Source: Deltaproteobacteria bacterium (GTDB lineage Bacteria; Myxococcota_A; UBA9042). Taken from it: DNA of 64,000 bases. The DNA is taken from assembly GCA_020632665.1 (NCBI GenBank), contig JACKFC010000017.1:40423-104422 (forward strand), written 5' to 3'. The notes under the pieces are model-generated. The model worked only from the letters and a program-made list of their open reading frames with translations. It did not search any database and was not told the origin of the DNA. Shown here piece by piece: positions 6,603 to 55,906 of the stretch. The translations under genes were made by a program, and so were the position numbers. Position 1 is the first letter of the stretch; the number at the start of each line of letters is the position of its first letter.

Positions 6603-9600
6603 ATGACCTTCTCCAAGCGTTTGTTTGCCCCCGCTCGCCTCGCGCGCTTCGGCCCGCTCTGGGCGGCCGCGCTGCTCGCGACCTCGGGCTGCGTCCCCGG
6701 TGCCACCGACGTCCCGGATTGGAACAAGGGCTCGGTCGGAGGCGGCGGCGCCGTCTGCGGCAACGGCAGCTGTGAGGCCGGCGAGACCGAGAATTCCTGC
6801 TCGGTCGACTGTACTGGAGTCTCCGCCGAGTGCGGCAACGGCAAATGCGAGCCCGGCGAAAGCGCGACGACCTGCAAGACCGATTGCGCGGTCGGCGGCA
6901 AGGTCTGCGGCGACGGAACCTGCGAGGGCGAAGAGACCTTCGTCTCCTGCCCGTCGGACTGCAAGCCGAAGTGCAAAGACCCGATTGTCGACTGCGGCGA
7001 GCACGCCAACTCCTGCAAGAAGTACGTCTGCGGGCAGAACGGTGAGTGCGAAGAGGCCAAGCTCGACGACAACACGCCCTGCGACGACGGCAACAAATGC
7101 ACCACCGAGGAGCGCTGCGAGAACGGCGAGTGCAAGGGCGGCAAGGAGCCGGATTGCGACGACGGCGACGCCTGCACGGCCGATGATTGCGACGCCGCGA
7201 ACGGCACCTGCACCAACGTCGCCGTGGCAGACGGCACCACGTGCCCGGCCGGCGGGCCCTGCGAGGGCAACAACCAATGCCAAGCCGGCCAGTGCAAGCC
7301 GACGGTCTGGAAATGCGAGTGCGACGCGAGCAAGCCCAACGACGACGCACAATACGGCTGCGCGAAGAAGAGCCCGGCGAATAAGTGCAACGGCGTCTCG
7401 ACCTGCGTCATCAACGACGACAGCAAGAAGCACGAGTGCGTCATCCCCGAGAGCACCAAGGTCACCTGTGACAGCAGCCTCGACACCGACTGCAGCACCC
7501 ACGTCTGCAATCCGCAGAAGGGCGCTTGCGAGTTCAAGGCCAAGCCGAACAACACGCTCTGCGACGACGGCAGCAACTGCACCAGCGGCGACACCTGCTT
7601 CGGCGGCGAATGCATCCCCGGCACGATGATCTGCGAGTGCGATATCGTGAACTTCAAGTCGCAGTGCGAGAAGAAGTACCAGGGCACCGCGGGGCCTTGC
7701 TCCGGACAATTCTATTGCGCCAACCCCGCCGCCGGCCCCTATGCCGCTGGCGCGACCTCGGAAGAGAAGGCGGCCAAGACGCACTGCGAGATCAACCCCG
7801 CCACCGTCATCAATTGCGAGAGCAAGGACGACACGGCCTGCTCGGTCAACACCTGCGTGGTCGACGGCAACGACGGCGGCTGCAAGATGGTGCCGGAGAA
7901 GGTCGGCAAGCTCTGCGACGACGGCGCCGAGTGCACCCCGAACTCGGCCTGCAACGCGGCTGGGCTCTGCTCGCCGGCGCTCTCCGACTCGCCGCCGTGC
8001 GATGAAAAGGGCCAGTGCTCCAAGGCCGGCACCGTCTGCCAGGACGGCTTCTGCGTCACCAATACCTGCGTCTGCCAGGAGGACGCCGACTGCGCCGCGA
8101 AGGACGACGGTGACCTCTGCAACGGCACCATGTTCTGCAACCAAGCGACCGGCGCTTGCGAGCTGAACAAAGCGACCATCGTCAACTGCGCGAGCTTGAG
8201 CGACACCGCTTGCGTGGTGAATATCTGCTACCCGAAGCTCGGCGTGTGCAAGCTGACGCCGCGTGAGAACGTGTTCAAGGAGACGATCACCGACCCGAAG
8301 ACGCAGGCGGTGAAGGTCTCGGTCAAGCCCTACCCGGTGAAGAAGGTCGACGTCTTCTGCGACGACGGCAACACCTGCACCCCGGTCGACGAATGCGACA
8401 AGGGCGTCTGCGTCTCCGACGACACCAATACCTGCGGCTGCCAGAAGGACAGCGACTGCGCCGGCCAGGAAGATGGCAACGTCTGCAACGGCACGATGTA
8501 TTGCGACAAACTCGCGTCCGGCGGACCCAAGTGCAAAGTCAACCCGGCGACGGTGGTCACCTGCATCGGCGTCGACGACACCGTCTGCGCGCAGAATGTC
8601 TGTGATCCGAAGACCGGTTCCTGCAAGGTCACGCCGGTCAAGGGCACGGTCCTCTGTGACGACGGCAACCCCTGTACACCGAACGACTTCTGCAACGCCA
8701 AGGGGCAGTGCAGCCCAGTCGGCGCAGACGCCAAGGCGTGCGGCGCCGGCGGCAGCTGCCCGATCGGCTATTCCTGCTTCGACGGCAAGTGTGCGACCAA
8801 CGTCTGCCAATGCAGCCAGGACAGCGACTGCGCCAGCAAGGAAGACGGCAACGTCTGCAACGGCACGCTCTACTGCGACAAGGCCACCGGCGCCTGCAAG
8901 GTCAACCCCGCCACCATCGTCAGCTGCAGCGACACCGAGGATTCGACCTGCTTGGCCAACCAATGCAACAAGGCGACCGGCGCCTGCGCGATGACGCCGA
9001 TCAACAACAACAAGCTCTGCGACGACGGCAATCCGTGCTCGGCGACGCCAATTTGCGAGAACGGTGTCTGCAAGGCCGAGACCGAGATCTGCGTCTGCAC
9101 CACCGACGCCGACTGCGCGCCGCTGCAGAGCAAGAACCTCTGCGCCGGCACGCTCTACTGCAAGAAGGGTGCGACCGCCGAGCAGAACACCTGCGCCGTC
9201 AATCCGGGGTCCGTCACGGTGTGTCCGTCCGGCGACGACACGGCCTGCATGCGCAACCAATGCGACGCGAAGACCGGAAAATGCGCCATGGTCAACAAGC
9301 CGGACAACGTCGTACTCTGCGACGACGGCAACCCCTGCACCAGCGGTGATAGCTGCGTCGCCGGTGCGTGCGCGGCTGGCACCAATATCTGCGAGTGCGC
9401 CACCGACGCCGATTGCGCTTCAAAGGATGACGGCAACGCCTGCAACGGCACGCTCTTCTGCGACAAGACGGGCGCGACCAATGTCTGCAAGACCAAGCCC
9501 GGCTCGATCCCGACCTGCAACCCGACCGCGACGGGCAGCTGCTTGGTCGAGAAGTGCATCCCGGCGACCGGCAAATGCGAGAAGATCAGCGCCTCGATCT

Positions 9601-10535
9601 GCAACGACGGCAACAGCTGCACGGTCGACTACTGCGATCTCGGCACCGACAAATGCGCGGTGAAGTCCGTTCCGGATGGCTCGGGTTGTGCCAGCCTCGG
9701 CAACTCCGGTGTCTGCGTCGCGACGTCCGCCTCCGCCTCGGACTGCAGCGTGCAGCCGCAGGCGGAGATGGTCTTCGTGCCGAAGGGCGACTTCCAGCAA
9801 GGCTGCAGCGCCACCGAGGGCGGAGCCTGCCAAGCGGCCGAGCTGCCGCAACACGAGGTCAAGCTCAGCGGCCACTGGATGGACCGCTTCGAGGTGTCCG
9901 TCGCGCGCTACTCTGCCTGCGTCGTCGCCGGTGTCTGCAAGGCCCCCGCGATGACCGGCACCTCCTGCAACTACGGCGACACCTCCAAGCTGCAGCAGCC
10001 CGTCAACTGCGTCAGCCACGCCGAGGCGGTCGCATATTGCACGTGGTATGGCGAAAATAGCGCGGCCGGCAAGAAGACCGGTCGCTTGCCGACCGAGGCC
10101 GAGTGGGAGCGCGCCGCGCGCGGTGGTTGCGAGAACTTCAGCGACTGCAAGACCGAGACGTCGACCTACGTCTGGGGAGACGCGCCGACGCCGAGCTGCG
10201 CGATGGCGATCATGAACGACGGCGGTGGCAAGGGTTGCGACGGCACCGCACCCGCGGATATCGCGTCCAAGCCGGATACGGATCGCAGCGTCTACGACGT
10301 CTACGATCTCGCCGGAAACCTCTCGGAGTGGGTCCAGGACACGTTCTCTGCCAGCTACTACGGAACGCTCGCGAACCCGGCCACCGACCCGGTGAACAGC
10401 GCCGCGGGCAGCACCAAGACCGTTCGCGGCGGCAGCTACGCCAGCACCAAGGCGACCGACCTGCGTGCGGCGGCGCGTGCGTCGGCGAGCGCCGCGTCGG
10501 CCTCTATCGGCTTCCGTTGCGTGATCGTGCCGTAG
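6603..10535 (+). CDS. Giant lipoprotein, 1310 aa: about 20 Myxococcus-type Cys-rich repeats plus a C-terminal formylglycine-generating-enzyme/sulfatase-modifying (FGE-sulfatase) domain
   Basis: Lipobox-like ATSGC. Reiterated CDDGNxCTxxDxCxxGxC modules. The C-terminus reads RLPTEAEWERAARGG...YVWGD...GNLSEWVQD...RGGSY...FRCV, which matches the FGE-sulfatase fold. Confidence 0.85.
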   Translation: MTFSKRLFAPARLARFGPLWAAALLATSGCVPGATDVPDWNKGSVGGGGAVCGNGSCEAGETENSCSVDCTGVSAECGNGKCEPGESATTCKTDCAVGGKVCGDGTCEGEETFVSCPSDCKPKCKDPIVDCGEHANSCKKYVCGQNGECEEAKLDDNTPCDDGNKCTTEERCENGECKGGKEPDCDDGDACTADDCDAANGTCTNVAVADGTTCPAGGPCEGNNQCQAGQCKPTVWKCECDASKPNDDAQYGCAKKSPANKCNGVSTCVINDDSKKHECVIPESTKVTCDSSLDTDCSTHVCNPQKGACEFKAKPNNTLCDDGSNCTSGDTCFGGECIPGTMICECDIVNFKSQCEKKYQGTAGPCSGQFYCANPAAGPYAAGATSEEKAAKTHCEINPATVINCESKDDTACSVNTCVVDGNDGGCKMVPEKVGKLCDDGAECTPNSACNAAGLCSPALSDSPPCDEKGQCSKAGTVCQDGFCVTNTCVCQEDADCAAKDDGDLCNGTMFCNQATGACELNKATIVNCASLSDTACVVNICYPKLGVCKLTPRENVFKETITDPKTQAVKVSVKPYPVKKVDVFCDDGNTCTPVDECDKGVCVSDDTNTCGCQKDSDCAGQEDGNVCNGTMYCDKLASGGPKCKVNPATVVTCIGVDDTVCAQNVCDPKTGSCKVTPVKGTVLCDDGNPCTPNDFCNAKGQCSPVGADAKACGAGGSCPIGYSCFDGKCATNVCQCSQDSDCASKEDGNVCNGTLYCDKATGACKVNPATIVSCSDTEDSTCLANQCNKATGACAMTPINNNKLCDDGNPCSATPICENGVCKAETEICVCTTDADCAPLQSKNLCAGTLYCKKGATAEQNTCAVNPGSVTVCPSGDDTACMRNQCDAKTGKCAMVNKPDNVVLCDDGNPCTSGDSCVAGACAAGTNICECATDADCASKDDGNACNGTLFCDKTGATNVCKTKPGSIPTCNPTATGSCLVEKCIPATGKCEKISASICNDGNSCTVDYCDLGTDKCAVKSVPDGSGCASLGNSGVCVATSASASDCSVQPQAEMVFVPKGDFQQGCSATEGGACQAAELPQHEVKLSGHWMDRFEVSVARYSACVVAGVCKAPAMTGTSCNYGDTSKLQQPVNCVSHAEAVAYCTWYGENSAAGKKTGRLPTEAEWERAARGGCENFSDCKTETSTYVWGDAPTPSCAMAIMNDGGGKGCDGTAPADIASKPDTDRSVYDVYDLAGNLSEWVQDTFSASYYGTLANPATDPVNSAAGSTKTVRGGSYASTKATDLRAAARASASAASASIGFRCVIVP

Positions 10536-10575
10536 CACGGCGAGCCCCCGACGCGGGGCGAGGGAGGAGGGCCGA

Positions 10576-13500
10576 ATGAACGCGCACGTTCGCTTGCAGG
10601 CCCGCGGCTCGACCCGCGTCGCCCTCTTCGTCGCGGCGCTCACGCTCCTCTCCGCCACCGACGCCTGGGCCGCCTTCTGCACCGGCAAGCAGAACGGCCT
10701 TTGGTGCGACGGCGACAAGCTCGTCTACTGCAGCAACGGCAACGTCAGCAGCAGCCAGACGTGCAGCAACGGCTGCCAATCGATGCCGCCCGGTACGCCC
10801 GACCAGTGCAAGGCGGCGACCGGCTTCTGCGCCGGCAAGGCCAGCGGCTATTGGTGCGACGGCAGCAAGCTGGTGCTGTGCAAATCCGGCAACATCAGCA
10901 GCAGCCAGAGCTGTCCGAACGGCTGCCAGTCGATGCCCTCGGGCACCGACGACAAGTGCAAGGAAGCGACCAATTTCTGCACTGGCAAGGCGAGTGGTCA
11001 GTGGTGCGACGGCAGCAAGTTGGTCCTTTGCAAATCGGGCAACATCAGCAGCAGCCAGAACTGTCCGAACGGCTGCCAGTCGATGCCCTCGGGCACCGAC
11101 GACAAGTGCAAGGAAGCGACCAATTTCTGCACCGGCAAGGCGAGCGGTCAGTGGTGCGACGGCAGCAAGTTGGTCCTTTGTAAGTCGGGCAACATCAGCA
11201 GCAGCCAGAACTGTCCGAACGGCTGCCAGTCGATGCCCTCGGGCACCGACGACAAGTGCAAGGAAGCGACGAATTTCTGCACCGGCAAGGCCAGCGGTCA
11301 GTGGTGCGACGGCAGCAAGTTGGTGCTGTGCAAATCCGGCAGCATCGCGAGCAGCCAGAATTGCCCGAACGGCTGCCAATCCAATCCCGCCGGGACCGAC
11401 GACACCTGCAAGGCGGCGACTTCCTTCTGCACCGGCAAGCAGAACGGCGCTTGGTGCGACGGCGACAAGTTGGTCCAATGCCAGAACGGCGCTGTCAGCA
11501 GCAGCCAGACCTGCGCCAACGGCTGCCAATCGATGCCGGTCGGCGTCCCCGATCAGTGCAAAGCGACCGGCGGCACGGGCTTCTGCGCCGGCAAGCAGAA
11601 CGGCCTCTGGTGCGACGGCGACGCGCTGGTCAACTGCCAGAACAACAGCGTCGCCAGCAGCCAGACCTGCAGCAACGGCTGCCAATCCATGCCGGTCGGC
11701 GTCGCCGATCAATGCGCTCCGAGCTCCGGTGGCGGCGGCGGCACTGGCGGCAAGTTGGAGCTCTGCAATCCCTTCAACCCCGCCAAAGCCGTGACCTGCG
11801 GCTTCGGCTGCTACAGCGGCCACAAGGGCAGCGACTACGCCTGCGGCGACGGCACGCCGCTCTACGCTCCGACGAACGGCACCGTCACCAAGGTCGTCAA
11901 CAGCTACAACGGGCAGACCTGCTCGCCGGACTTCGGCAACCTCATCAAGATCGCGACGGGCCCCTACGAGATCATCCTCGCCCACATGCGCAAGGACATC
12001 CTGGTCGGCGCGGGTGAGATCCAAGCCGGCACGCCGATCGGCTATGCCTCCAATACCGGCTACACCCTCACGCAGAAGAACGGCACCTGGGTCTGCCAAC
12101 AGGGCGGCGGCCACCACCTGCACCTCGAGGTCCGCAAGAACGGCGTCGCGGTCGACGCCTACGGCGGTGAGGTCGTCTGGAAGAACTGCGGTGACATCGG
12201 CAACGGCGGCGGCGGCGGGACCACGACTTTCTGTACCGGCAAGCAAAACGGCCTGTGGTGCGACGGCAGCGCGCTGGTCGACTGCAAGGACGGCGCGGTG
12301 GCGAGTAGCCAAACCTGCAGCAACGGCTGCGAGTCGATGCCGGTCGGCGTGCCGGATCAGTGCAAATCCGGCGGCGGCACCGGCTTCTGCAGCGGCAAGC
12401 AGAACGGCGCCTGGTGCGATGGCGACAAGCTCGTGACCTGCAGCGGCGGTTCGATCAGCGCCAGCGAGACCTGCGCCGACGGCTGCGAGTCGATGCCGGT
12501 CGGTGTCCCCGACCAATGCAAGGCCAAGCCGGTGACAGGGCCGTGCGAGGGCGTGCAAAACGCCGCGCTCTGCCACCAGGACGCCGTCGTGATCTGCGTC
12601 GCGGGGGCCGTGCAGCAGACCATCACCTGCCAGTTCGGATGCGTCGACAAGGCCGGTGTCGTCCACTGCAACGAGCCCGCCGCACCCGAGCCATGCGCCG
12701 GCAAGGGCGACGGCGCGAGCTGCGAAGGCGACGTGCTCCGCCAATGCCAATCCGGCAAGACCGCGAGCGCCACGCCCTGTGCCTTCGGCTGCGGCGTGGT
12801 CGGCGGCAATGCGCTCTGCCTGGCCAAGCCCGCACCGGCCGATCCCTGCGCCGGCCTCGCCGACGGCGGCCATTGCGAAGCGGCTTCGCTGCGGACCTGC
12901 CAATCCGGGCAAACCGTCGGCGCCATCACCTGCAACTTCGGCTGTGCCGGAGCGCCAGGGCAGGGCGCCTGCGCGCTCCCCGGCGGCCAAGGGCCGTGCC
13001 AGGGCAAGCCGGACGGTTGGCATTGCGACGGCAGCAAGCGGCTGCGCTGTGCGGCCGGCGCGCTCGCCGAACAAGAGCTCTGCGCCTTCGGCTGCGGCAC
13101 CTTCGCCGGACAGGTCGGCTGCCTCGGCGTCGAAGGCGCAGCGTGCGCGGCCAAGGTCGATGGCGGCGTCTGCCAGGGCGAGCTCCTGCTCGGCTGTGCC
13201 GCGGGACAGGTGCAATCGGCCACCCTTTGCATGCAAGGCTGTGTCGCCGACGGTGCGGCACATTGCGCTGCGGCCGCGGGCGTCTGTGCCGATAAGGTCG
13301 ACGGCGCCTGGTGCGACGCCGGCGCCCTGGTGCACTGCCTGAGCCAGTCCGAAGTCAGCGTCGAGATCTGCAAATTCGGCTGCCTACCGACCCCCGGACC
13401 GGTCGCCGACGTCTGCGCTTCGGCGAAAGACGCGAGCTGCTTCGGCAAGGCCGACGGCACGTGGTGCGACGCCGGGGCCAAGATCGTCTGCAGCGGCGGC

Positions 13501-14649
13501 GTCGAGACCGAACGGGTCGCCTGCGCCCTGGGCTGCCAGGGGCCTGCGGGCCAGGCGAGCTGCTCCGCTGCGGCGGCGTCGAGTTGCGCCGAGCTCGAAG
13601 ACGGGACGCATTGCGCGGGATCCGCCGTGGTCGCTTGCGTCTCCGGCGAGACCACGCTGGTCGCGCCTTGCGTCAACGGCTGCGAGGTCGACCCCGTGCT
13701 CGGGCCGCGCTGCATCAAGGCCGAAGCCGCGGGCTCGGCGATCGCCGTCACCGTCGACGAGGCCGGCTGCGCCCAGGTCGTCGGCTCACTGCTCCTCGGT
13801 GACGTCGCGCACCAGAGCCAGCTCGGCTCCGACGTCGCCATCGGCGCCTGCTCCGACCGTACGATCGCCAGCCACGGCGCGCTCATCACCGCGCTCTCGA
13901 CGGCCTACGCCGCGTTGGGCGCGCCACGAGAGGCGCTCGGCGTGGTCGGCAACACACCGCCGCTGGAGAACCTCTGGCGCAACGAGAACGACGGTTACGC
14001 CGCCTGTGCCGAAGCCGGTGTGTGCTGCGCGCGATGGGATCGCAACCCGGATCCGGTCGCCTTCGACCTCGGCAGCGGCTTCGACGGGGCCTGCCTGCCG
14101 CCTGAGTTGGCCCTGCGCGTCGCCGCGTCGCTGGCCGCCGGTCGCCCCGTGGTCGCCGGCATCCACCCGATCGGCAACCCGCCCGGCGCGCACTTCGTGA
14201 CGATCGTCGGCGTCGGCGAAGGCGGCTGGCAGGTCCTCGACCCGAAGGGAGACGCCGCCCCGGTCGCGCTCGCCGCCATCGCCGCCGTCGAACACGTCCT
14301 CGATTTCGTCGCGATCCCGCGCCTGGACGGAGCCCCGAACGCGGCGTTGTCGCCCAGCGGCGCCGGCGGCCCGCTCCCCGGCGGACCAGGGCGGAACCAT
14401 CCGTCGAGTGGCGCCGACGCGGGCGGCGGCGCGACGGGCGACGCGACCGGCGACGCGACCGGCACGATGGGCGGCGACGCCGGGCTCGACGCGGCTTCGG
14501 ACGGTGCTTGGCAACCGGCGGCCGCACCGAGCGGCTGCAGCGCCTCTCCGGTCCGGGGACGCCTGACGACCGCGCCCTGGGCCTGGCTGACGACGTTGAT
14601 CGCCGCGGCGTGGGCCCTTTGTTTCGCGTTGCGCCGCCGCTCGACTTGA
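10576..14649 (+). CDS. Giant surface protein, 1357 aa: signal peptide, seven 50-aa Cys repeats, M23 (LytM) metallopeptidase domain, two further repeat families, a possible papain-like (C39-like) domain, and MYXO-CTERM
   Basis: Signal peptide LFVAALTLLSATDAWA. M23 motifs HKGSDYA and GGHHLHLEV. C-terminal GCSASPVRGRLTTAPWAWLTTLIAAAWALCFALRRRST fits the MYXO-CTERM pattern (Cys motif, TM helix, Arg tail). The possible papain-like segment is GCAQVVGSLLLG...AHFVTIVGVGEGGWQVLDP. Confidence 0.85.
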   Translation: MNAHVRLQARGSTRVALFVAALTLLSATDAWAAFCTGKQNGLWCDGDKLVYCSNGNVSSSQTCSNGCQSMPPGTPDQCKAATGFCAGKASGYWCDGSKLVLCKSGNISSSQSCPNGCQSMPSGTDDKCKEATNFCTGKASGQWCDGSKLVLCKSGNISSSQNCPNGCQSMPSGTDDKCKEATNFCTGKASGQWCDGSKLVLCKSGNISSSQNCPNGCQSMPSGTDDKCKEATNFCTGKASGQWCDGSKLVLCKSGSIASSQNCPNGCQSNPAGTDDTCKAATSFCTGKQNGAWCDGDKLVQCQNGAVSSSQTCANGCQSMPVGVPDQCKATGGTGFCAGKQNGLWCDGDALVNCQNNSVASSQTCSNGCQSMPVGVADQCAPSSGGGGGTGGKLELCNPFNPAKAVTCGFGCYSGHKGSDYACGDGTPLYAPTNGTVTKVVNSYNGQTCSPDFGNLIKIATGPYEIILAHMRKDILVGAGEIQAGTPIGYASNTGYTLTQKNGTWVCQQGGGHHLHLEVRKNGVAVDAYGGEVVWKNCGDIGNGGGGGTTTFCTGKQNGLWCDGSALVDCKDGAVASSQTCSNGCESMPVGVPDQCKSGGGTGFCSGKQNGAWCDGDKLVTCSGGSISASETCADGCESMPVGVPDQCKAKPVTGPCEGVQNAALCHQDAVVICVAGAVQQTITCQFGCVDKAGVVHCNEPAAPEPCAGKGDGASCEGDVLRQCQSGKTASATPCAFGCGVVGGNALCLAKPAPADPCAGLADGGHCEAASLRTCQSGQTVGAITCNFGCAGAPGQGACALPGGQGPCQGKPDGWHCDGSKRLRCAAGALAEQELCAFGCGTFAGQVGCLGVEGAACAAKVDGGVCQGELLLGCAAGQVQSATLCMQGCVADGAAHCAAAAGVCADKVDGAWCDAGALVHCLSQSEVSVEICKFGCLPTPGPVADVCASAKDASCFGKADGTWCDAGAKIVCSGGVETERVACALGCQGPAGQASCSAAAASSCAELEDGTHCAGSAVVACVSGETTLVAPCVNGCEVDPVLGPRCIKAEAAGSAIAVTVDEAGCAQVVGSLLLGDVAHQSQLGSDVAIGACSDRTIASHGALITALSTAYAALGAPREALGVVGNTPPLENLWRNENDGYAACAEAGVCCARWDRNPDPVAFDLGSGFDGACLPPELALRVAASLAAGRPVVAGIHPIGNPPGAHFVTIVGVGEGGWQVLDPKGDAAPVALAAIAAVEHVLDFVAIPRLDGAPNAALSPSGAGGPLPGGPGRNHPSSGADAGGGATGDATGDATGTMGGDAGLDAASDGAWQPAAAPSGCSASPVRGRLTTAPWAWLTTLIAAAWALCFALRRRST
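10675..11574 (+). repeat. Six in-frame tandem 150-bp coding repeats; the three copies at 10825-11274 are about 90-97% identical
   Basis: The TTCTGC (FC) codon recurs every 150 bp at 10675, 10825, 10975, 11125, 11275 and 11425. The copies at 10975 and 11125 differ by about 5 nt. Confidence 0.8.
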
Positions 14650-19938: not shown

Positions 19939-22023
19939 TCAGCCGCCCACGGCGTAGCGCACGGTGTACTTCGTGGTGCCGCCGGAGGCCTGCGGGAAGC
20001 GGAGCTTCTTCGCGGCGCCGATGATGCACTTGCCGAGCTCGTCGCTCGAGTGCTTACCGATGACCTTGGCGTTGCTGACGCCACCCTGGGCGGCGACGTA
20101 GATGATGACCTTGATGGTCTCGGCGCCGGCGTCGATATCGCCGTGCAGCATATAGCAGCGCAGCACGTCCGAACGCTTGCCCGCGGCGATCTTGTCGACC
20201 TCGGCCTGGCTCATCTTCCGTCCAGCTCCGCCGCTGGAGGGCTCCTCGTCGTCCTCGTCCTTCTTGCTCGGCTGCGGCGCGGTCATCGCCTTGGCCTGCT
20301 TCTTGGCCCGCTCGGCGGCGAGGAGCTTGTCGATATCGTCCATATTCTTGGACGTCTTTGGCGGCTCTGGGGTCGGCTCGGGCTTGGTCTCGGCCTTCTT
20401 CGCCTCACGCGCCTTCTTCTCGGCCAGAATGCGGTCGATCTCGTCCATATTGCCGCTCGACGCGGGCTTCTCGGCCTTGGCTTCGACCTTGGCTTCGGGC
20501 TTCTTCTCGACCTTGGCTTCAGCCTTGGTCTCCGCCTTGGCCTCGGCCTTGGCGGAAGGCTTGGCCTCGGCCTTGACGACCGCCGCCTCTGCCTTCGGAG
20601 CGGTCTCGGTGCCGCCCGCATCAGCCTGCGCCGTCGCGGCGGCCGCTGCGTCCGCTGCAGCCTTCTCGGCGGCGGCCTTCTCCTCTGCAGCCTTCTTCTC
20701 GGCGGCGGCCTTCTCTTCTGCAGCCTTCTTCTCGGCGGCAGCCTTGTCGTCCGCGGCCTTCTTGTCTGCGGCGGCCTTGGCAGCAGCGATCCGCGCAGCT
20801 TCGGCCTGTGGCGCCGGCTGGACGACCTGCGGCGCAACGCCGCGGGTCTCCGTTCCCTTGCCCTTGTTCTTGGCGAGGAAGATGCCGCCGCCGACCAGCG
20901 CCAGGACCACGACGATACCGACGATCAGACCGGCACCCATGCCGCCCTCGTCATCCTTCTTCGCGGTGGCGGCTGCCTTGCCGGCGGCAACCGGGTTGGC
21001 GCCACCGACCGAGGGCTTGCCGCTCCCAGCCTTGCTGCTCGCGGTCGCTCCGCTCGTCTTCGCCGCTGGGGTCGACTTGGCCTGCGTCGCCGTCGCGCCA
21101 GCCGTGCCGGCCGCGGCCGCGGCTGCACCGGCCTTGCCACGGGCCGTGTCCTTCTTGCCCGCGGCAGCCTTCGCGTCGGCCGCGGTCTCTTCGGTCGGGA
21201 TGGCCTCGACGCGCGTCGCCGCCTCGTCCTGGCCGCTCGCCTTGGCCTCGGCCTTGCCCGGCAGCGCCACGACGCCAGCCTTGCGCTTGCCGGTGGGGAC
21301 GGCCGGGGGGGCGTCGCTCTCGGCCCCAGGAACCGGCGGCGGATCGGCGTCCTCGGAAGCCGGCACCGGCGGGGGCTCTGCCGCTGCCGTCGCGGCCGAC
21401 GTCACCGCGGCCTTGGCCACCGGGGGCGGCTCCTCGTCGACGTCGGCCTCCTCGGCGATCAGCGCGACGTCGCCGCCGGCAGGCAGCGCCGGAGGCTCGG
21501 CCTCGCCTTCGCCGCCTTCGCCGCCGTCGCCCTGGGCGTCCAGCTTGACGAGCAGCTCGATCATCGCGGCCGAGAGCTCGAGCGTCTGGGCGCGGCGCGG
21601 CGACTTCCGCTTGGCGACCGGCTCGGCCGAAGCGCCGCCGCTCACCTCGGCGACCTTCTCCTGGAAGGGCGCGACCTCGCGCACCGGCGTCCAGGCGCCG
21701 AATCCCTTGCGCCACACCAGGTCGTCCGCCTTGAGGCGGCCGGCACCGATGTGCTCCTGCACCTCCGCCTCGGTCAGCGGACCCACCTGTTTGCCTTCGA
21801 TGCCGGCGAACCAGACACGCTGCGGCGTCGTCGGTGCGGCCTCGGGCATGTCCATCTGGAAGGGCATCGTCGTGCGGCCAGCGTCGGCCTCGGTCGCGAC
21901 ACCGCGGACCCGGATCTCCGCTCCACACTTCTTGCAACCGACCTTGAAGACGCGGTTCTTGCCTTGAACCTTCTCGTCGGGGATTTTGTAGTTCGCGCCG
22001 CAGGCCGGGCAGCTGATCTTCAT
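19939..22023 (-). CDS. GltJ/AgmX-like protein: MJ0042-type zinc ribbon + GYF domain + TM + low-complexity Ala/Lys/Glu/Pro region + C-terminal AgmX-type domain
   Basis: MKISCPACGANYKIPDEKV...GCKKCGAEI zinc ribbon. RVWFAGIEGKQVGPLTEAEVQEHIGAGRLKADDLVWRKGFGAWTPV GYF-like segment. TM LIVGIVVVLALVGGGIFL. Conserved C-terminal ~80 aa (VLRCYMLHG...VIIYVAAQGGVSNAKVI...). Confidence 0.75.
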   Translation of the reverse strand: MKISCPACGANYKIPDEKVQGKNRVFKVGCKKCGAEIRVRGVATEADAGRTTMPFQMDMPEAAPTTPQRVWFAGIEGKQVGPLTEAEVQEHIGAGRLKADDLVWRKGFGAWTPVREVAPFQEKVAEVSGGASAEPVAKRKSPRRAQTLELSAAMIELLVKLDAQGDGGEGGEGEAEPPALPAGGDVALIAEEADVDEEPPPVAKAAVTSAATAAAEPPPVPASEDADPPPVPGAESDAPPAVPTGKRKAGVVALPGKAEAKASGQDEAATRVEAIPTEETAADAKAAAGKKDTARGKAGAAAAAAGTAGATATQAKSTPAAKTSGATASSKAGSGKPSVGGANPVAAGKAAATAKKDDEGGMGAGLIVGIVVVLALVGGGIFLAKNKGKGTETRGVAPQVVQPAPQAEAARIAAAKAAADKKAADDKAAAEKKAAEEKAAAEKKAAEEKAAAEKAAADAAAAATAQADAGGTETAPKAEAAVVKAEAKPSAKAEAKAETKAEAKVEKKPEAKVEAKAEKPASSGNMDEIDRILAEKKAREAKKAETKPEPTPEPPKTSKNMDDIDKLLAAERAKKQAKAMTAPQPSKKDEDDEEPSSGGAGRKMSQAEVDKIAAGKRSDVLRCYMLHGDIDAGAETIKVIIYVAAQGGVSNAKVIGKHSSDELGKCIIGAAKKLRFPQASGGTTKYTVRYAVGG

Positions 22024-42918: not shown

Positions 42919-43067
42919 CGCGCGGGCCACGACCGCCGATCGGGGCGTGATCGGCGGTGAGTTCTGGAGGCGCACCACAGCGGTGGTAGCCTGCATGCGC
43001 GCGTGGCGCGAGGAGGAACGGCTCGATGAGCAAGACGGGTTCGCAGCAGAGCAATGGCAAGAGCACG

Positions 43068-45305
43068 ATGGTGAGGCGCTGGCTCGCAGCCGCGCTGACG
43101 GCGGCCGTCGCGCTCGCCGTCGCCCCCGCTGCCGACGCGGCCGGCAAGGGGCCCTGGCGGCAGCTGCAGGCTGCCTCGCGCGCGTTCCGCGTTGGGGACC
43201 ACGCTGCTGCGCGCAAGGCGCTGGAGGCCATGCTGGCCGGCAAAGTGGCCGACAAGGACGCAGCCAGCGCCGCGCACTTCATGCTCGCCCGCAGCTGCGC
43301 CGCGCTCGGCGACGGCCCGGCGGCCACATCGGCGTTCGCCAAGGCAAGCGCGATCCGCAAGCTCACGCCGCAGGCCTACGCCTTCGCCGAGGTCGAGGTC
43401 CTCGCTGCCGCCGGCAAGAAGAAGGAGGCCCACGACGCCCTCGGCGCGCTGCGCAAGCGCTGGCCGAAGTACCGCTGGGCCCAGGCCGACCTGACCTGGT
43501 CGCGGCTCTACGAGGAGCTGGGGCCACCCGAGGCATCGGCCGCCGCCGCGCTCGGCCTCTACGACAAATCGCACCTGCACCTGCCGCAGGACGAGCTGCT
43601 GGCGCGCGCCGCCCGCGGCTACGAGAAGGCCGGGCAGAAGGACCGCGCCCTCGGCCTGTGGAAGAAGCTGCTGATGCGCCACCCCGAGAGCGCCTACATC
43701 GACCAGGCGATTGCGCGGGTCCCGCTCACCTCGCTCTCCATCGAGGAGCGCTTCGACCGCGCCGAGCTGCTCTTCAAGCGGCGCGACTACGAGCGCTGCC
43801 GGGCGGAGTCACTTTACCTCTGGGAGAAGAACTACAAGCGCTCCTCGATCGGCTATTTGCTCGGCAAGATCGGCAGCGAGCGGCTGCGCGACGACTACGC
43901 CGGGGCGAAGACCTATTTCGAGGCCGCCATCGGCGCCGGTGGGCCCTACGCCATGTACGCGCTCGCCTCCTACGGCATCGTCCTCGGCAAGCTCGGCAAG
44001 GTGAAAGAGGCCGTCGCCGCGTTCGACCAATGGTTGGCTCGCTACAGCAAGTCGGCCGGGATGAAGCGGGTCAACGAGGCGATGTACGACCGCTGTCGCG
44101 CGATCCACATCGGCGGCGACTCGCTGGCGGCGGCAAAGGAGTACGAAGCCTTCCTGCTCCGCCACCAGAGCGGCTTCGACTGGGGCAAATATTGGTGGTT
44201 CGTCGCCTTCTGGAACTACCAGGGCGGTGAATACGACAAGGCGATCCAGCAGATGGCGCGGCTCCGCGGCTCGAGCAACCCGCTGGTCGGTGGCAAGGCG
44301 CGCTATTGGACGGGCAAGGCGCAGGAGAAGAAGGGCGACGTGGCCGCGGCGAAGAAGACGATGCTCGCCTTGGTCAACGGCATGCCGCTGAACTACTACT
44401 CGGGCCTGGCCGAGAATTGGCTGGTCGACCACGGCTTCGGCAAGGCGCTTCCGAAGCGCCCCGACCTCTCGAAGGTGGCGTGGAAGGTGCCGGATCCCTT
44501 CTCCGGCATCCCGCATCAGGGGCCGGCACAGGAACTTCGGATCATCGCCCACCTCGGCGAGTTCGACACCCTGCGCGACGCCCTCGGCGACCGGATGCGC
44601 AAGCTGCGCAAGCAAATCGGCGCCGACCGCCTGGACCGGCTCGAATCCGACCTCAGCGACGGCCTCGAGGACTTCGCCCGCGACCGCGGCCGCGCCCTCT
44701 CACGCCACCGCAAGGTGCTGCGCAAGTGGCCGACCCGGCAGACGGTGCAGGCCTGGCGCGGCATCTATCCGCGGGCCTACGCGACCCACACCAAATGGGC
44801 CGCAGATCGCTTCGGCGCGCCGGAGTGGATGGTCTACGCCCACATGCTGCAGGAGTCGCGGTACAAGCCCTGGATGATCTCCGGCGCCCCGGCCTACGGC
44901 CTGCTCGAGCTGCTCGACCGCACCGCGCGTCGCCTCGCCGCCGAGCAGAAAGAGGACTACCAACTCTGGATGCTGATGGTGCCCGGCCACAACGTGCGCT
45001 GGGGGACGCAATATCTCGGCGCGCTGGTGGCCAAGTTCGAGGGGCAAATCCCCTTCGCGATCGCGAGCTACAACGGCGGTCCGATGCTGCTCGAGTACCA
45101 TATGCAGGAGAGCCGAGGAAAAGACTTCGACGTGATGATCGACGATATGGGCCCGCACGAATGCCGCAACTACGTGCGCATGGTCATCGGCCACTTCCTG
45201 CGCTACCTCGCGATCTACGAGAAGCCGGCCAAGGCGAAGGCGCTACGCGACAAGCTGCTGCCGCGATCTTGGCGCCCGGAGTGGAAGAAGCACCCCGACT
45301 ATTAG
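43068..45305 (+). CDS. Soluble lytic transglycosylase (Slt70-like: superhelical domain + C-terminal SLT domain), secreted
   Basis: Signal peptide MVRRWLAAALTAAVALAVAPAADA. Catalytic-Glu block HMLQESRYKPWMISGAPAYGLLEL. ASYNGGP. Confidence 0.75.
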   Translation: MVRRWLAAALTAAVALAVAPAADAAGKGPWRQLQAASRAFRVGDHAAARKALEAMLAGKVADKDAASAAHFMLARSCAALGDGPAATSAFAKASAIRKLTPQAYAFAEVEVLAAAGKKKEAHDALGALRKRWPKYRWAQADLTWSRLYEELGPPEASAAAALGLYDKSHLHLPQDELLARAARGYEKAGQKDRALGLWKKLLMRHPESAYIDQAIARVPLTSLSIEERFDRAELLFKRRDYERCRAESLYLWEKNYKRSSIGYLLGKIGSERLRDDYAGAKTYFEAAIGAGGPYAMYALASYGIVLGKLGKVKEAVAAFDQWLARYSKSAGMKRVNEAMYDRCRAIHIGGDSLAAAKEYEAFLLRHQSGFDWGKYWWFVAFWNYQGGEYDKAIQQMARLRGSSNPLVGGKARYWTGKAQEKKGDVAAAKKTMLALVNGMPLNYYSGLAENWLVDHGFGKALPKRPDLSKVAWKVPDPFSGIPHQGPAQELRIIAHLGEFDTLRDALGDRMRKLRKQIGADRLDRLESDLSDGLEDFARDRGRALSRHRKVLRKWPTRQTVQAWRGIYPRAYATHTKWAADRFGAPEWMVYAHMLQESRYKPWMISGAPAYGLLELLDRTARRLAAEQKEDYQLWMLMVPGHNVRWGTQYLGALVAKFEGQIPFAIASYNGGPMLLEYHMQESRGKDFDVMIDDMGPHECRNYVRMVIGHFLRYLAIYEKPAKAKALRDKLLPRSWRPEWKKHPDY

Positions 45306-52675: not shown

Positions 52676-55600
52676 TTAGGGCGTGAACGTATAGATGACG
52701 ATCTCGCGCTTGCCGGATCCGTTTTGCCCCTCGGCGACGAGGCTCCAACTGTCCCCTAGCCAAACCGCTTGAGCGGCACCTCTCCAGGCAAGACCGGGCC
52801 GCGGGTCGCCGGATTCCATGAGGTCGGTTGACCACGAGCTCGGTGTCAGCAGGTCCGCTGGCTTGACGGCTCCGTCGGCACTCACAGTGAAATACGAGTG
52901 CACGCCAGGGTAGTGCAGGGTGCCCGTATTCATCGTTACGAGCGCTGCACCACCCTTTCCGGCCACGACGCGGGCTCCGAGGATACCTGACGAGCAGCTC
53001 CCCGGGGTCTTGCTGCCTTGCGTGAACACCTGCTTCGCCGTCCAGGTGCCCCCGGGCTTGCCGCGGGCCAGCCAGAGGCTGTCGCTCGACGCTCCTCGGG
53101 TCACGATCGCGACGACCGCTTCGCCCTTGTCCGCGTCCCAGGCGGCATCCAGGGTACAGACCGCCGTCGCGCCGCCGAGAACCGTCGCGCCGGCACCGCT
53201 GCTCCCGGAGGCGAGCCAGGATGCCGGAGTGTCGTCGGTGCCCTTCGCATCCAGCGGGAGGGCCCACAACTCCCGAGTGTACGATCCGGATTTGTTCTTT
53301 TCACCCAACGCGAGGACCCAGAACCGCGCCTTGTTGGCGTCTTCCGCGCCCATGTCGATCACGACCGGGTGGACGGTCGAAAAGGCTCCGAGGAGCGTGC
53401 TGCCGTTGATTGACGGCGAGCCAACGACCCCACCGAATGCCAGGACGTTGCTCGCCGGCGTCACGAGGTCATCCACCTTCGGTCGCGCGAAGATGGCGCC
53501 CCGCTTGCTCGGATCCGTCGACGCTCCGCCAAGGACCGCGAAGCCGGGCGTCATGAACGCCGGCTTGTCGCCACCATCGAGCGGGCAGGTGGTGCCAGCG
53601 ACGGCGCTCCAGGAACCTCCGGAGGTCACGGCCCCACCGTCGAGCCGCGCCAGCCGGGCGATGCCGCCCCGGCCGAAGTTGTCGAGGCAGATCGGCGAGC
53701 CGCCCACGCCGGCTTCGAGCCAGGTCAGCCACGCCTGCGAGCTGGACTCGGGATCGACGGCGACCGCCGGGAACGCCGCCGCGGCTCCGGCGCCGACGAC
53801 GTGGTTGGCGAAGGTGATGACCGCCGGCTTCGGCTTGGTGTCGCCGGGCTTGGCCGCGATGGCCGGGTCGAGCACGACCGCGCGCAGCTTGCTCGGCTGG
53901 TTGATCGCCCACGTCGGGTCGCCGAACTTCTCCGGATCCCCTCCGAGCGAGGGCTTGACGACGGTCGCCGCCGCCTGGCTCTGGTAGACCACCCACAACC
54001 GGTGGCGTCCCGTCTTGGCGTCGAGGACGTGCCGAATCGCGACCGGGTTGGTCGGCGCCGGGTCGTCCGCGCTCTCGCTGACCAGCACCACGGGCTTCGG
54101 CGTCAGGCAGGCCTTGGCGGTGCCGTCGCAGCTGTGGCCGTAGGGGCAATCGTCGACGAAGGCGCAGCCGGTCTTGCTGTCGGCCCAGGCGGTGCCGGGG
54201 TCGCAGGCGTCGACGGTGCAGGGCAGCCCGTCGTCGCAGGCTCCGGCGATGATCTCGTGCTTGCAGGCGCCCGCGGCGGAGCAGGTGTCCTTGGTGCAGC
54301 TCGCGCCGTCGTCGACGCAGCTCGAACCGGCCGCGGCGAGGGTCCAGGCGCTCTGCGACGCGCTCGGCGTGCAGCTCTGGCAGCCCGCTTGCTGCATGGT
54401 GCCCTCGTCGACGCAGGCGCCGTCGATGACGCAGCTCTTGCTGCCGATCGTGAGCTTGCAGCTACCGCCGGCGCATTGCTCGGTCGTGCAGGCGAGGCCG
54501 TCGGTGGTGCAGTCGGCGCTGTTGTTGACGAAGGCGCAGCCGGTCTTGGCCTCACCAGTGGCGCCGGCGCAGGTGTCGCCGGTGCAGACGTTGCCGTCGT
54601 CGCAGGCCGAGTCCACGGCCTTGTGGACGCAGCCGGTGTCGACGGCACCGGCCTTGGGGTCGCAGCTGTCGATGGTGCAGGAGAGGTCGTCGTCGCAGGC
54701 GGCGTCGCTCGGGACCTGCTTTTTGTCGCAGGCGCCAGCGCCGTCGCAATGCTCGGTGGTGCAGGAGAGGCCGTCGTCGCCCTCGCAGGTCGCGCTGGTC
54801 GGCAGCGGCACCGTCTTGCAGCCCTTGACCGCCTCGGCGTCGCAGCTGCCCTTGACGCAGGGGCCGTCCTTGTCCTTGCAGGCGGCGTCGTCGGCAGTCG
54901 CGACGCAGGCGCCCTTGCCGTCGCAGGCGTCGACCGTGCAGGCGATATCGTCGGCCTTGCAGGGCTCGCCGGCGGCGATCGGGGTCCACTTGTCCTGAAC
55001 GATGGTGGCGGCGCAGCGCTGGCAGGGCGCATTCGGGTCGGCATCGCCGTCGGCGATGCAGGTCCCGCTGCCGCCGTCGCCGGCGATGAAGCAGAAGCCG
55101 GCGCTGATCCCCTCGATGACGCACGAGCCCGCCTTGCACGCGCCCGGGCGGCAGGTCGCGCCGTCTTCGCTGCACGTCGTGCCGTCGGCCTTATCCGACC
55201 AGGCTTCCTTCGCCGAGATCGGATCGCAAACCTTGCAGCCCGCGCTGCCGTCCGCTGCGTCGCCGGTTTTGCGGCATTTTCCGTCGATCACGCAGAAGCC
55301 GGTGGCGATGCCGGCAGGCTGGCAGGTGCCGCTGCCGTTGCAGGCGCCCTGGGTGCAGGATAGGCCGTCGGCGTCGTCGCAGCCCGCACCGTTCGGCTTG
55401 TCCGTCCATTTGCGCGGGTCGATGCTCGGGATGCAGGCCTGGCAGCCGTTGCTCGGGTTGTTGGCGTCCGCGGCGACGCAGCTCTTGCTGCCGTTGTCGT
55501 CGATCAGGCAGGTATCGGCCGTCAGGTTCGCGGCGACCGTGCACTCGCCCTCGGCGTCGCACGCGCCGAGGGTGCAGGCGATGCCGTCGCCGTCCTCACA

Positions 55601-55906
55601 CGCGCTGCCGGCGGCCTTGGCGACCATCACGCAGACGCTCTCCTCACACGCGGCAGCCCGACAGGCGCCGGCCTCGGTCGGGGTCCAGCTGCCGTCACCG
55701 AGCGCCGCCTCGCAATCGGCGACCGCCGTGCAGACGAACGCGCCCGCAGCCAAGCAGCGGCCGAGCTTGCATTGCTGGCCGTTGTTGCACTCGGAGTCGG
55801 CGGAGCAGGAGAGGGTCGGATCCGGCACGGTCCCGCAGCCAGCGGAGCCGAGCCACAATCCGATCAGGGTTGCGAGCCGGAGCGTGTTCGGGTTTCGAGT
55901 ATTCAC
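52676..55906 (-). CDS. Giant lipoprotein, 1076 aa: N-terminal Cys-rich repeat region (CDDG..C...C modules) plus a C-terminal beta-rich domain
   Basis: GTG start with GAGGAGG 4 nt upstream. Lipobox LWLGSAGCG. Repeats CDDGLPCTVDACD and CDDGNVCTGDTC. Confidence 0.8.
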   Translation of the reverse strand: MNTRNPNTLRLATLIGLWLGSAGCGTVPDPTLSCSADSECNNGQQCKLGRCLAAGAFVCTAVADCEAALGDGSWTPTEAGACRAAACEESVCVMVAKAAGSACEDGDGIACTLGACDAEGECTVAANLTADTCLIDDNGSKSCVAADANNPSNGCQACIPSIDPRKWTDKPNGAGCDDADGLSCTQGACNGSGTCQPAGIATGFCVIDGKCRKTGDAADGSAGCKVCDPISAKEAWSDKADGTTCSEDGATCRPGACKAGSCVIEGISAGFCFIAGDGGSGTCIADGDADPNAPCQRCAATIVQDKWTPIAAGEPCKADDIACTVDACDGKGACVATADDAACKDKDGPCVKGSCDAEAVKGCKTVPLPTSATCEGDDGLSCTTEHCDGAGACDKKQVPSDAACDDDLSCTIDSCDPKAGAVDTGCVHKAVDSACDDGNVCTGDTCAGATGEAKTGCAFVNNSADCTTDGLACTTEQCAGGSCKLTIGSKSCVIDGACVDEGTMQQAGCQSCTPSASQSAWTLAAAGSSCVDDGASCTKDTCSAAGACKHEIIAGACDDGLPCTVDACDPGTAWADSKTGCAFVDDCPYGHSCDGTAKACLTPKPVVLVSESADDPAPTNPVAIRHVLDAKTGRHRLWVVYQSQAAATVVKPSLGGDPEKFGDPTWAINQPSKLRAVVLDPAIAAKPGDTKPKPAVITFANHVVGAGAAAAFPAVAVDPESSSQAWLTWLEAGVGGSPICLDNFGRGGIARLARLDGGAVTSGGSWSAVAGTTCPLDGGDKPAFMTPGFAVLGGASTDPSKRGAIFARPKVDDLVTPASNVLAFGGVVGSPSINGSTLLGAFSTVHPVVIDMGAEDANKARFWVLALGEKNKSGSYTRELWALPLDAKGTDDTPASWLASGSSGAGATVLGGATAVCTLDAAWDADKGEAVVAIVTRGASSDSLWLARGKPGGTWTAKQVFTQGSKTPGSCSSGILGARVVAGKGGAALVTMNTGTLHYPGVHSYFTVSADGAVKPADLLTPSSWSTDLMESGDPRPGLAWRGAAQAVWLGDSWSLVAEGQNGSGKREIVIYTFTP

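Follow-up and report, generated by a model that had tools for sequence, protein, structure and literature searches.

Whether a single myxobacterial protein carries two different peptidases is the question raised by an open reading frame (ORF) in a 64,000-nucleotide (nt) stretch of contig JACKFC010000017.1 (Deltaproteobacteria bacterium, Myxococcota_A; this whole stretch is referred to as the window). The ORF occupies 10576..14649 on the forward strand and encodes 1357 amino acids (aa), at exactly the coordinates given by an earlier reading of the letters; its GC content at third codon positions (GC3 = 0.89) is typical of coding sequence in a window of ~70% GC. That earlier, sequence-only reading described a surface protein with an M23 domain and a possible C39-like, papain-like domain ahead of a MYXO-CTERM sorting tail. 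From N to C terminus, this modular secreted protein consists of a signal peptide, seven six-Cys modules, the M23 domain, ten further six-Cys modules, a globular domain of ~200 aa, a linker, and a tail comprising a Cys, a transmembrane (TM) helix and an RRR cluster. Judged from its sequence, the protein most plausibly combines one active peptidase (M23) with a C39-like pseudo-peptidase, a domain for which no peptidase activity is predicted.

The M23 half of the earlier claim was confirmed. Residues 415–527 (11818..12156, forward strand) matched the Peptidase_M23 profile PF01551 with an E value of 1.7e-13 and 51 bits (gathering threshold 28.7) over profile positions 2–95 of 96, and all five residues of a complete active site are present (H416, D420, H470, H514 and H516). 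H416 and D420 (within GHKGSDY) and H470 (within LAHM) align with the HxxxD and catalytic-His motifs of the best solved relatives, the S. aureus “Peptidase M23” 5KQB and zoocin A (5KVP); the HxH motif was read directly as H514-L-H516 (HLH). NCBIfam models for the MepM and ShyA/C DD-endopeptidases showed weak M23 similarity, far under their cutoffs. The M23 motifs were retained in all orthologues read, and no other part of the protein is as constrained as this domain, which shows 84% identity to the closest orthologue (L003) and a ratio of nonsynonymous to synonymous substitution rates (dN/dS) of 0.07 between the orthologues L001 and L002; all dN/dS values given here were obtained by simple Nei-Gojobori counting, with dS values of 0.56–0.9, and the genome is strongly GC-biased. 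We therefore take the domain to be a putatively active metallopeptidase, with peptidoglycan as its presumable substrate.

Homology of the C-terminal globular domain (13741..14325, forward strand) to the Peptidase_C39_2 family (PF13529) was established transitively, at the level of profiles, through its relatives. By itself, the window domain matched PF13529 below threshold (E = 0.046, 14.7 bits; gathering threshold 24) and in the His block only; it had no match in NCBIfam, phmmer against the PDB returned noise only, and a word-index homology search found nothing with the domain and four distant matches with the domain alignment. An exhaustive phmmer search with the C-terminal domain over 1.84 billion representatives recovered 28 relatives (P0001–P0028), five of them with E values under 1e-30, and these were aligned with the window domain to give a family alignment of 29 sequences. 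PF13529 was matched by 22 of the 29 (best E = 2.6e-15), and a few matched the C70, C39 and C10 families. The profile of the family alignment matched PDB entry 3ERV (3erv_A, a “putative C39-like peptidase” from B. anthracis) with an E value of 1.1e-6 and with both catalytic blocks covered, sGClitslam aligning with RGCEVTSLAM and qhwvvivG..DP with EHCVVLIG..DP. The same profile also matched the C39 domains of ComA, of PCAT-type transporters and of CdiA. In addition, a profile built from the Cys-bearing members only, to avoid circularity in placing the nucleophile column, matched the window domain with an E value of 5e-38.

Structure prediction agreed with the profile evidence. An AlphaFold2 (AF2) model with the family alignment as input reached a predicted local distance difference test score (pLDDT) of 90.7 and a predicted template modelling score (pTM) of 0.88, with the central helix beginning at residue 54 and one strand at residue 158 of the modelled piece; a single-sequence AF2 model (pLDDT 38) was of no use. 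The top Foldseek matches of the confident model in the PDB all belong to the papain clan (procathepsin X, 3ERV, the pseudomurein endoisopeptidase PeiR, PCAT1, and AvrRpt2 of family C70), with weak scores (best E = 8.6e-3, template modelling (TM) score at most 0.39); in the viral structure set, phage proteins of the lysozyme, endolysin or peptidase kind came out best (E = 6e-4, TMq 0.53). The relatives' profiles and the confident model thus bear out the guess of a C39-like, papain-like domain, and the model has a papain-clan fold, not the non-peptidase fold that the sequence-only reading had named as the contrary outcome. Both peptide strings quoted in that reading as Cys and His blocks are found in the translation (GCAQVVGSLLLG at residue 1064 and AHFVTIVGVGEGGWQVLDP at residue 1205), and for the second, homology to the His/Asp block of C39-like peptidases is genuine.

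The first string, in contrast, is not the catalytic block it was taken for. In the family alignment, the catalytic-Cys column is the “GC” of ssGClitslamvy, aligned with RGCEVTSLAM of 3ERV and DCGVASLAM of ComA, and the window protein has Ala1102 (codon GCG, 13879..13881, forward strand) in this column, in the context IASHGALITALSTAY, where it is flanked by IASHG and LITALSTAY. With the Cys-bearing-only profile, Ala1102 fell in the Cys column at the highest posterior probability. In the AF2 model, the central helix starts with Ala1102, a beta-strand starts with His1206, and Asp1222 comes after the next strand, which is the canonical papain arrangement. The other positions of the active site are preserved: Gln1082 (13819..13821), at the oxyanion-hole Gln position, is conserved in all relatives; His1206 (14191..14193), at the catalytic-His position, is retained; and so is Asp1222 (14239..14241), at the third triad position in the DP motif (all on the forward strand). 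A sequencing error at residue 1102 was considered and rejected, as a change from GCG to TGY needs at least two substitutions and all orthologues agree. Because the nucleophile is missing, C39-like peptidase activity is not predicted, and the domain should not be filed as a peptidase despite its homology to the C39_2/papain superfamily.

Loss of the nucleophile coincides with the presence of M23 across the relatives. When 185,579 species-representative genomes were scanned with a seven-sequence alignment, eight loci were recovered (L001–L008), all from metagenome-assembled genomes (MAGs) and most titled Myxococcales; the scan seeded with the window domain alone gave no match. The nucleophile column reads D, A, A, G, S and A in P0001–P0006 and D, D, A, A, G, A, A and S in L001–L008, and each of the 20 more distant relatives (P0009–P0028) has Cys there. 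All 14 sequences of the M23 clade are Cys-less and 20 of the 20 relatives without M23 keep Q-C-H-D; when the window M23 domain was used as the query, M23 was found in every full-length protein lacking the Cys, and P0009–P0028 had none. The claim of two different peptide-cleaving domains therefore fails, the Cys column being Ala in the window protein and, in each M23-bearing orthologue examined, A, D, G or S. In a neighbour-joining tree built from the domain (unbootstrapped and from a small sample), the M23-bearing Cys-less proteins form one clade, whose sister group consists of proteins with six-Cys modules, intact Q-C-H-D, a MYXO-CTERM tail and no M23; short Q-C-H-D proteins are the outgroup. 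Within the Cys-less clade, the His has also changed to Arg (P0001/L001, L002 and P0002/L003) or Gln (P0004/L005), and the Asp to Asn in L002; the window protein keeps both. The simplest reading of these sequences is a single Cys loss associated with M23 acquisition, after which some lineages would have eroded further. Two positions ahead of the lost Cys, the Cys-less clade has His or Asp, and the active relatives vary.

The explanation that we lean towards for the whole protein is an anchored M23 enzyme that has retained a C39-like pseudo-peptidase, most likely as a binding or targeting module. The protein would be exported via Sec and probably anchored at the surface through its C-terminal Cys/TM/Arg tail, which may be lipidated, cut by a myxosortase and exported through a type II secretion system (T2SS), as shown for MYXO-CTERM proteins; its sole catalytic centre would be the M23 zinc metallopeptidase, a putative peptidoglycan endopeptidase of the lysostaphin/zoocin type. 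The C-terminal domain would derive from an active Q-C-H-D C39-like cysteine peptidase, of the kind extant without M23 in the sister MYXO-CTERM proteins, and would have lost its nucleophile in the M23-carrying lineage (Ala1102 here), with the fold, the Gln, His1206, Asp1222 and three predicted disulfides kept. Most likely, the dead domain would use the old substrate groove for ligand binding or targeting, e.g., with a cell-wall peptide as ligand, a role that would parallel SH3b in lysostaphin or the non-catalytic C39-like domain of HlyB, and the 17 six-Cys modules may form a disulfide-rich stalk or an adhesive array. C39-like domains are recognised catalytic modules in phage lysins (PMC3314691), which makes a peptidoglycan-peptide ligand plausible.

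Had both domains remained active, the C39-like domain would have to be a working cysteine peptidase with Cys1065 or another Cys partnering His1206, making the protein a dual-peptidase lytic enzyme. The papain-like fold, the retained Gln1082, His1206 and Asp1222, and the six cysteines in the domain are consistent with such an enzyme; the positions and pairing of these cysteines, however, make it very improbable. Cys1065 (13768..13770, forward strand), the cysteine of the “Cys block” GCAQVVGSLLLG, lies 17 residues ahead of the oxyanion Gln1082, in an N-terminal beta extension that is absent from the short active relatives. Among 30 sequences, Cys1092 and Cys1150 are universal, Cys1144 and Cys1151 are either both present or both absent, and Cys1065 and Cys1173 are confined to the repeat-bearing clade. 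While active relatives carry an odd seventh Cys, the nucleophile, co-occurrence leaves all six cysteines of the window domain paired, from which we infer three disulfides (1092/1150, 1144/1151 and 1065/1173). Cys1065 is thus a clade-specific and probably disulfide-bonded residue, and both it and Cys1092 were rejected as relocated nucleophiles on co-occurrence and position. Moreover, no residue type is conserved in the nucleophile column of the orthologues, and several of them have lost the His as well. Such proteins represent an annotation trap, as any Cys upstream of an HxVxxG..DP block would wrongly mark them as dual peptidases.

Several observations weigh against the binding or targeting role that we prefer for the dead domain, or against surface anchoring. 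The C39-like domain is the fastest-evolving globular part of the protein (50% identity to L003, as compared to 84% for M23, with a dN/dS of 0.56 between the window protein and L003; neighbouring housekeeping genes of L003 are 84–90% identical to those of the window), and its triad has been eroded stepwise in sub-lineages (H to R or Q, D to N); rapid evolution and erosion would be compatible, too, with partial decay or with a role that is purely structural. The window's own tail matched neither MYXO-CTERM model (TIGR03901 and TIGR03382) at E ≤ 10, and no myxosortase gene was seen within the 64-kb window. The sample of relatives is small (28 cluster representatives and eight loci), the binding role is argued from analogy, and an anchor-adjacent domain would be nearest to the producer's own membrane, an odd site for a module that targets prey. 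If decay were complete, the C39-like domain would be a functionless remnant, a spacer between the repeats and the anchor, to which the fast evolution and the stepwise erosion would lend support. We consider this improbable, because the least saturated pair (L001/L002, dS ~0.56) gives a dN/dS of 0.21 for domains that lack both the Cys and the His (0.17 for the C-terminal repeats), seven Cys-less domains share 28 invariant columns (among them those of the six cysteines, the Gln and an ENxWR motif), the domain is found in every orthologue, and its fold is confidently predicted. With a dN/dS of about 0.2 and these invariant columns, the Cys-less domain is under purifying selection and is not junk. 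The dead domain might instead be a regulatory or protein–protein module that gates M23 in cis, or that binds the product of the upstream FGE-sulfatase gene described below, and not the cell wall. The pairing with this gene is conserved in five loci and the two genes are probably co-transcribed, M23 presence strictly coincides with Cys loss, the domain lies near the anchor, and the C39-like domain of HlyB binds a protein substrate (PMC8277102). A regulatory role is, however, unlikely in our view; the M23 protein contains no CxPxR motif of FGE targets. Returning to the anchored M23 enzyme with a retained binding module, it may be extended into a “catalytic hand-over” in uncultured Myxococcota, in which an anchored C39-like peptidase on a six-Cys stalk gained an M23 domain and the old domain became a recognition module; this scenario would include an undescribed type of cell-wall or prey-surface targeting domain, with M23 acting in contact-dependent killing, and a new six-Cys repeat family, and we put it forward as tentative and, taken as a whole, doubtful.

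Comparison with described systems places the protein as a variant of two known kinds, M23 lysins that carry an accessory domain and C39 pseudo-peptidases; no description of an M23 plus C39-like MYXO-CTERM architecture was found in the literature searched. With PF13529 and 3ERV, the window domain shares a homologous papain-like fold and alignable Gln, His and Asp-Pro blocks; it differs in having Ala1102 for the Cys, an extra N-terminal beta extension and three inferred disulfides, and in being part of a 1357-aa repeat protein with M23. HlyB-type transporters carry a C39-like domain (CLD) in which the Cys is replaced by Tyr; this CLD does not cleave and is thought to act non-proteolytically in secretion (PMC8277102). 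The two domains are alike in being derived from C39, in having the catalytic Cys substituted with fold and His kept, and in a non-proteolytic interaction with a substrate, which for the window domain would be putative. However, the HlyB CLD lies in the cytoplasm, at the N terminus of an ABC transporter of the type I secretion system to which it is fused, whereas the window domain is extracytoplasmic, disulfide-rich and of the C39_2 branch, adjoins a C-terminal sorting tag, and has lost its Cys independently. The resemblance is a functional analogy and not membership, as the window domain does not stand at the N terminus of a transporter. Lysostaphin-type M23 enzymes of predators depend on a separate non-catalytic binding domain, SH3b, and LssL from Lysobacter enzymogenes is, like the window protein, a secreted M23 enzyme with a non-catalytic accessory domain, directed against the cell wall of other bacteria (PMC12510463). 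Unlike these enzymes, the window protein has no SH3b but a dead cysteine peptidase as its accessory domain, 17 six-Cys modules, and a membrane-anchoring tail instead of release.

Pseudo-enzymes that retain the substrate groove of a hydrolase are a recurrent route to binding or regulatory modules. The C39-like domain of HlyB is one such case, and the catalytically dead LytM factors EnvC and NlpD are another. Here, an extracellular C39-like domain has lost its nucleophile in exactly the lineage that has gained M23, and it has been maintained by purifying selection in a gene that is conserved and syntenic among uncultured Myxococcota. Were the dead domain to bind cell-wall peptides, engineered lysins could draw on it as a new targeting module, and it would offer a clue to how surface-tethered myxobacterial enzymes engage prey. 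This correlation between M23 gain and Cys loss is, together with the unannotated six-Cys module, what most merits being followed.

The six-Cys modules were previously described as three Cys-repeat families; instead, we find a single module family in 17 copies, with the pattern C-x8-C-x7-C-x10-C-x3-C-x7..10-C and a few sequence subtypes. Seven modules with the spacing C-x8-C-x7-C-x10-C-x3-C-x10-C precede M23 (10675..11715, forward strand), and ten more follow it (12229..13713, forward strand), two of the N-terminal subtype and eight more divergent. The six Cys and one Gly are invariant across all 16 distinct module copies aligned. At the DNA level, the N-terminal modules form a tandem array with a 150-bp period (10674..11693, ~6.8 copies, 81–84% matches), and three of the N-terminal copies are identical at the protein level. 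The number of modules ahead of M23 varies among orthologues (seven in the window protein, five in L003), which, together with the tandem array, suggests recent expansion and contraction of the repeats. The module is present, too, in the sister proteins without M23 (P0009–P0017). No significant match to it was found in Pfam or NCBIfam, only spurious sub-threshold ones; its profile matched only complement factor H (sushi domains) in the PDB, at insignificant E values above 2; and a word-index homology search with the repeat alignment gave no match. The module looks like an undescribed extracellular repeat family, and with 17 copies in this protein it merits a family definition.

The C-terminal tail (14530..14646, forward strand) consists of SGCSAS, with the Cys at residue 1321, a 14-residue spacer, a hydrophobic helix (WAWLTTLIAAAWALCFAL) and RRRST. 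MYXO-CTERM is composed of a short motif that contains an invariant Cys, a TM helix, and Arg residues clustered on the cytoplasmic side; lipidation of the Cys is presumed, the myxosortase MrtX cleaves after this residue, and the T2SS carries the protein to the cell surface (PMC11980579). By direct reading, the window protein has this tripartite layout as well as an N-terminal signal peptide, and the tails at the equivalent position of P0002, P0008, P0009 and P0014 pass TIGR03901 (24–32 bits, cutoff 20); the tail of P0016 passes TIGR03382 (GC_trans_RRR). The MYXO-CTERM assignment made in the sequence-only reading thus stands for the layout and for these four relatives with a TIGR03901 score, but not for the score of the window's own tail; the long spacer between Cys and helix probably explains this failure, and we treat the tail as a divergent MYXO-CTERM by homology of position. 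Known clients of the MYXO-CTERM/MrtX pathway, such as TraA and the NCBIfam “myxosortase-dependent M36 metallopeptidase”, share with the window protein an N-terminal signal peptide and a C-terminal Cys/TM/Arg arrangement; the window protein differs in its sub-threshold tail with the longer spacer, and in its cargo of M23 plus a dead C39-like domain. No T2SS genes were seen within the 64-kb window. Overall, these features support the reading of the protein as a secreted, probably surface-anchored myxobacterial M23 enzyme.

At the other end of the gene, a Shine-Dalgarno-like sequence (GGGAGGAGG, 10561..10569, forward strand) is located 6 nt upstream of the ATG. The signal peptide (10576..10671, forward strand) was read directly as MNAHVRLQARGSTRVALFVAALTLLSATDAWA followed by AF, with an AxA cleavage-type site between AWA and AF immediately ahead of the first six-Cys module; orthologues share this layout. 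Between the C39-like domain and the tail lies a low-complexity linker of 68 residues that is rich in Gly, Ala, Pro and Asp (14326..14529, forward strand), as seen from a drop in pLDDT in the AF2 model and from reading of the repeats. A 12-nt repeat within it (CGACGCGACCGG, ~4 copies at 14415..14480) codes for (GDAT)n.

Upstream of the M23 gene, 6603..10535 on the forward strand encodes a 1310-aa Cys-rich protein with a C-terminal domain of the formylglycine-generating enzyme (FGE)-sulfatase type (PF03781, E = 6.5e-43), many Cys-rich repeats of the CxDGNxCT type, and an N-terminal region ending in a lipobox-like LLATSGC. The gap between the two genes is 40 nt and contains no terminator-like site, so that they are probably co-transcribed. 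The order FGE gene, M23 gene and ccmE was found in L001, L003, L006 and L007; L002 ends inside the M23 gene and so shows only the upstream FGE gene, bringing the FGE pairing to five MAG loci in total. The M23 protein was also considered as a target of the FGE protein and rejected, as the CxPxR motif was looked for and none is present. Locus L006 (CAYTLW010000021.1) is titled “uncultured Enterobacteriaceae bacterium” and carries a high-GC orthologue with a Cys/TM/RRRR tail and the FGE–ccmE synteny; this bin is probably mislabelled, and its orthologue gene includes a run of N.

Elsewhere in the window, the forward strand at 43026..45305 encodes a 759-aa protein with TPR and an SLT lytic transglycosylase domain, and the reverse strand at 19939..22023 encodes a protein of 693 aa that has a zinc ribbon at its N terminus and a GYF_2 domain. 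A long ORF on the reverse strand (52676..55906, 1075 aa, GC3 = 0.89) has coding-like composition and no Pfam match at E ≤ 1e-5. The remainder of the window represents chromosomal housekeeping genes, encoding LepA, RNase J, a ClpB-like ATPase, a thiolase, AdoHcy hydrolase and an M3 peptidase.

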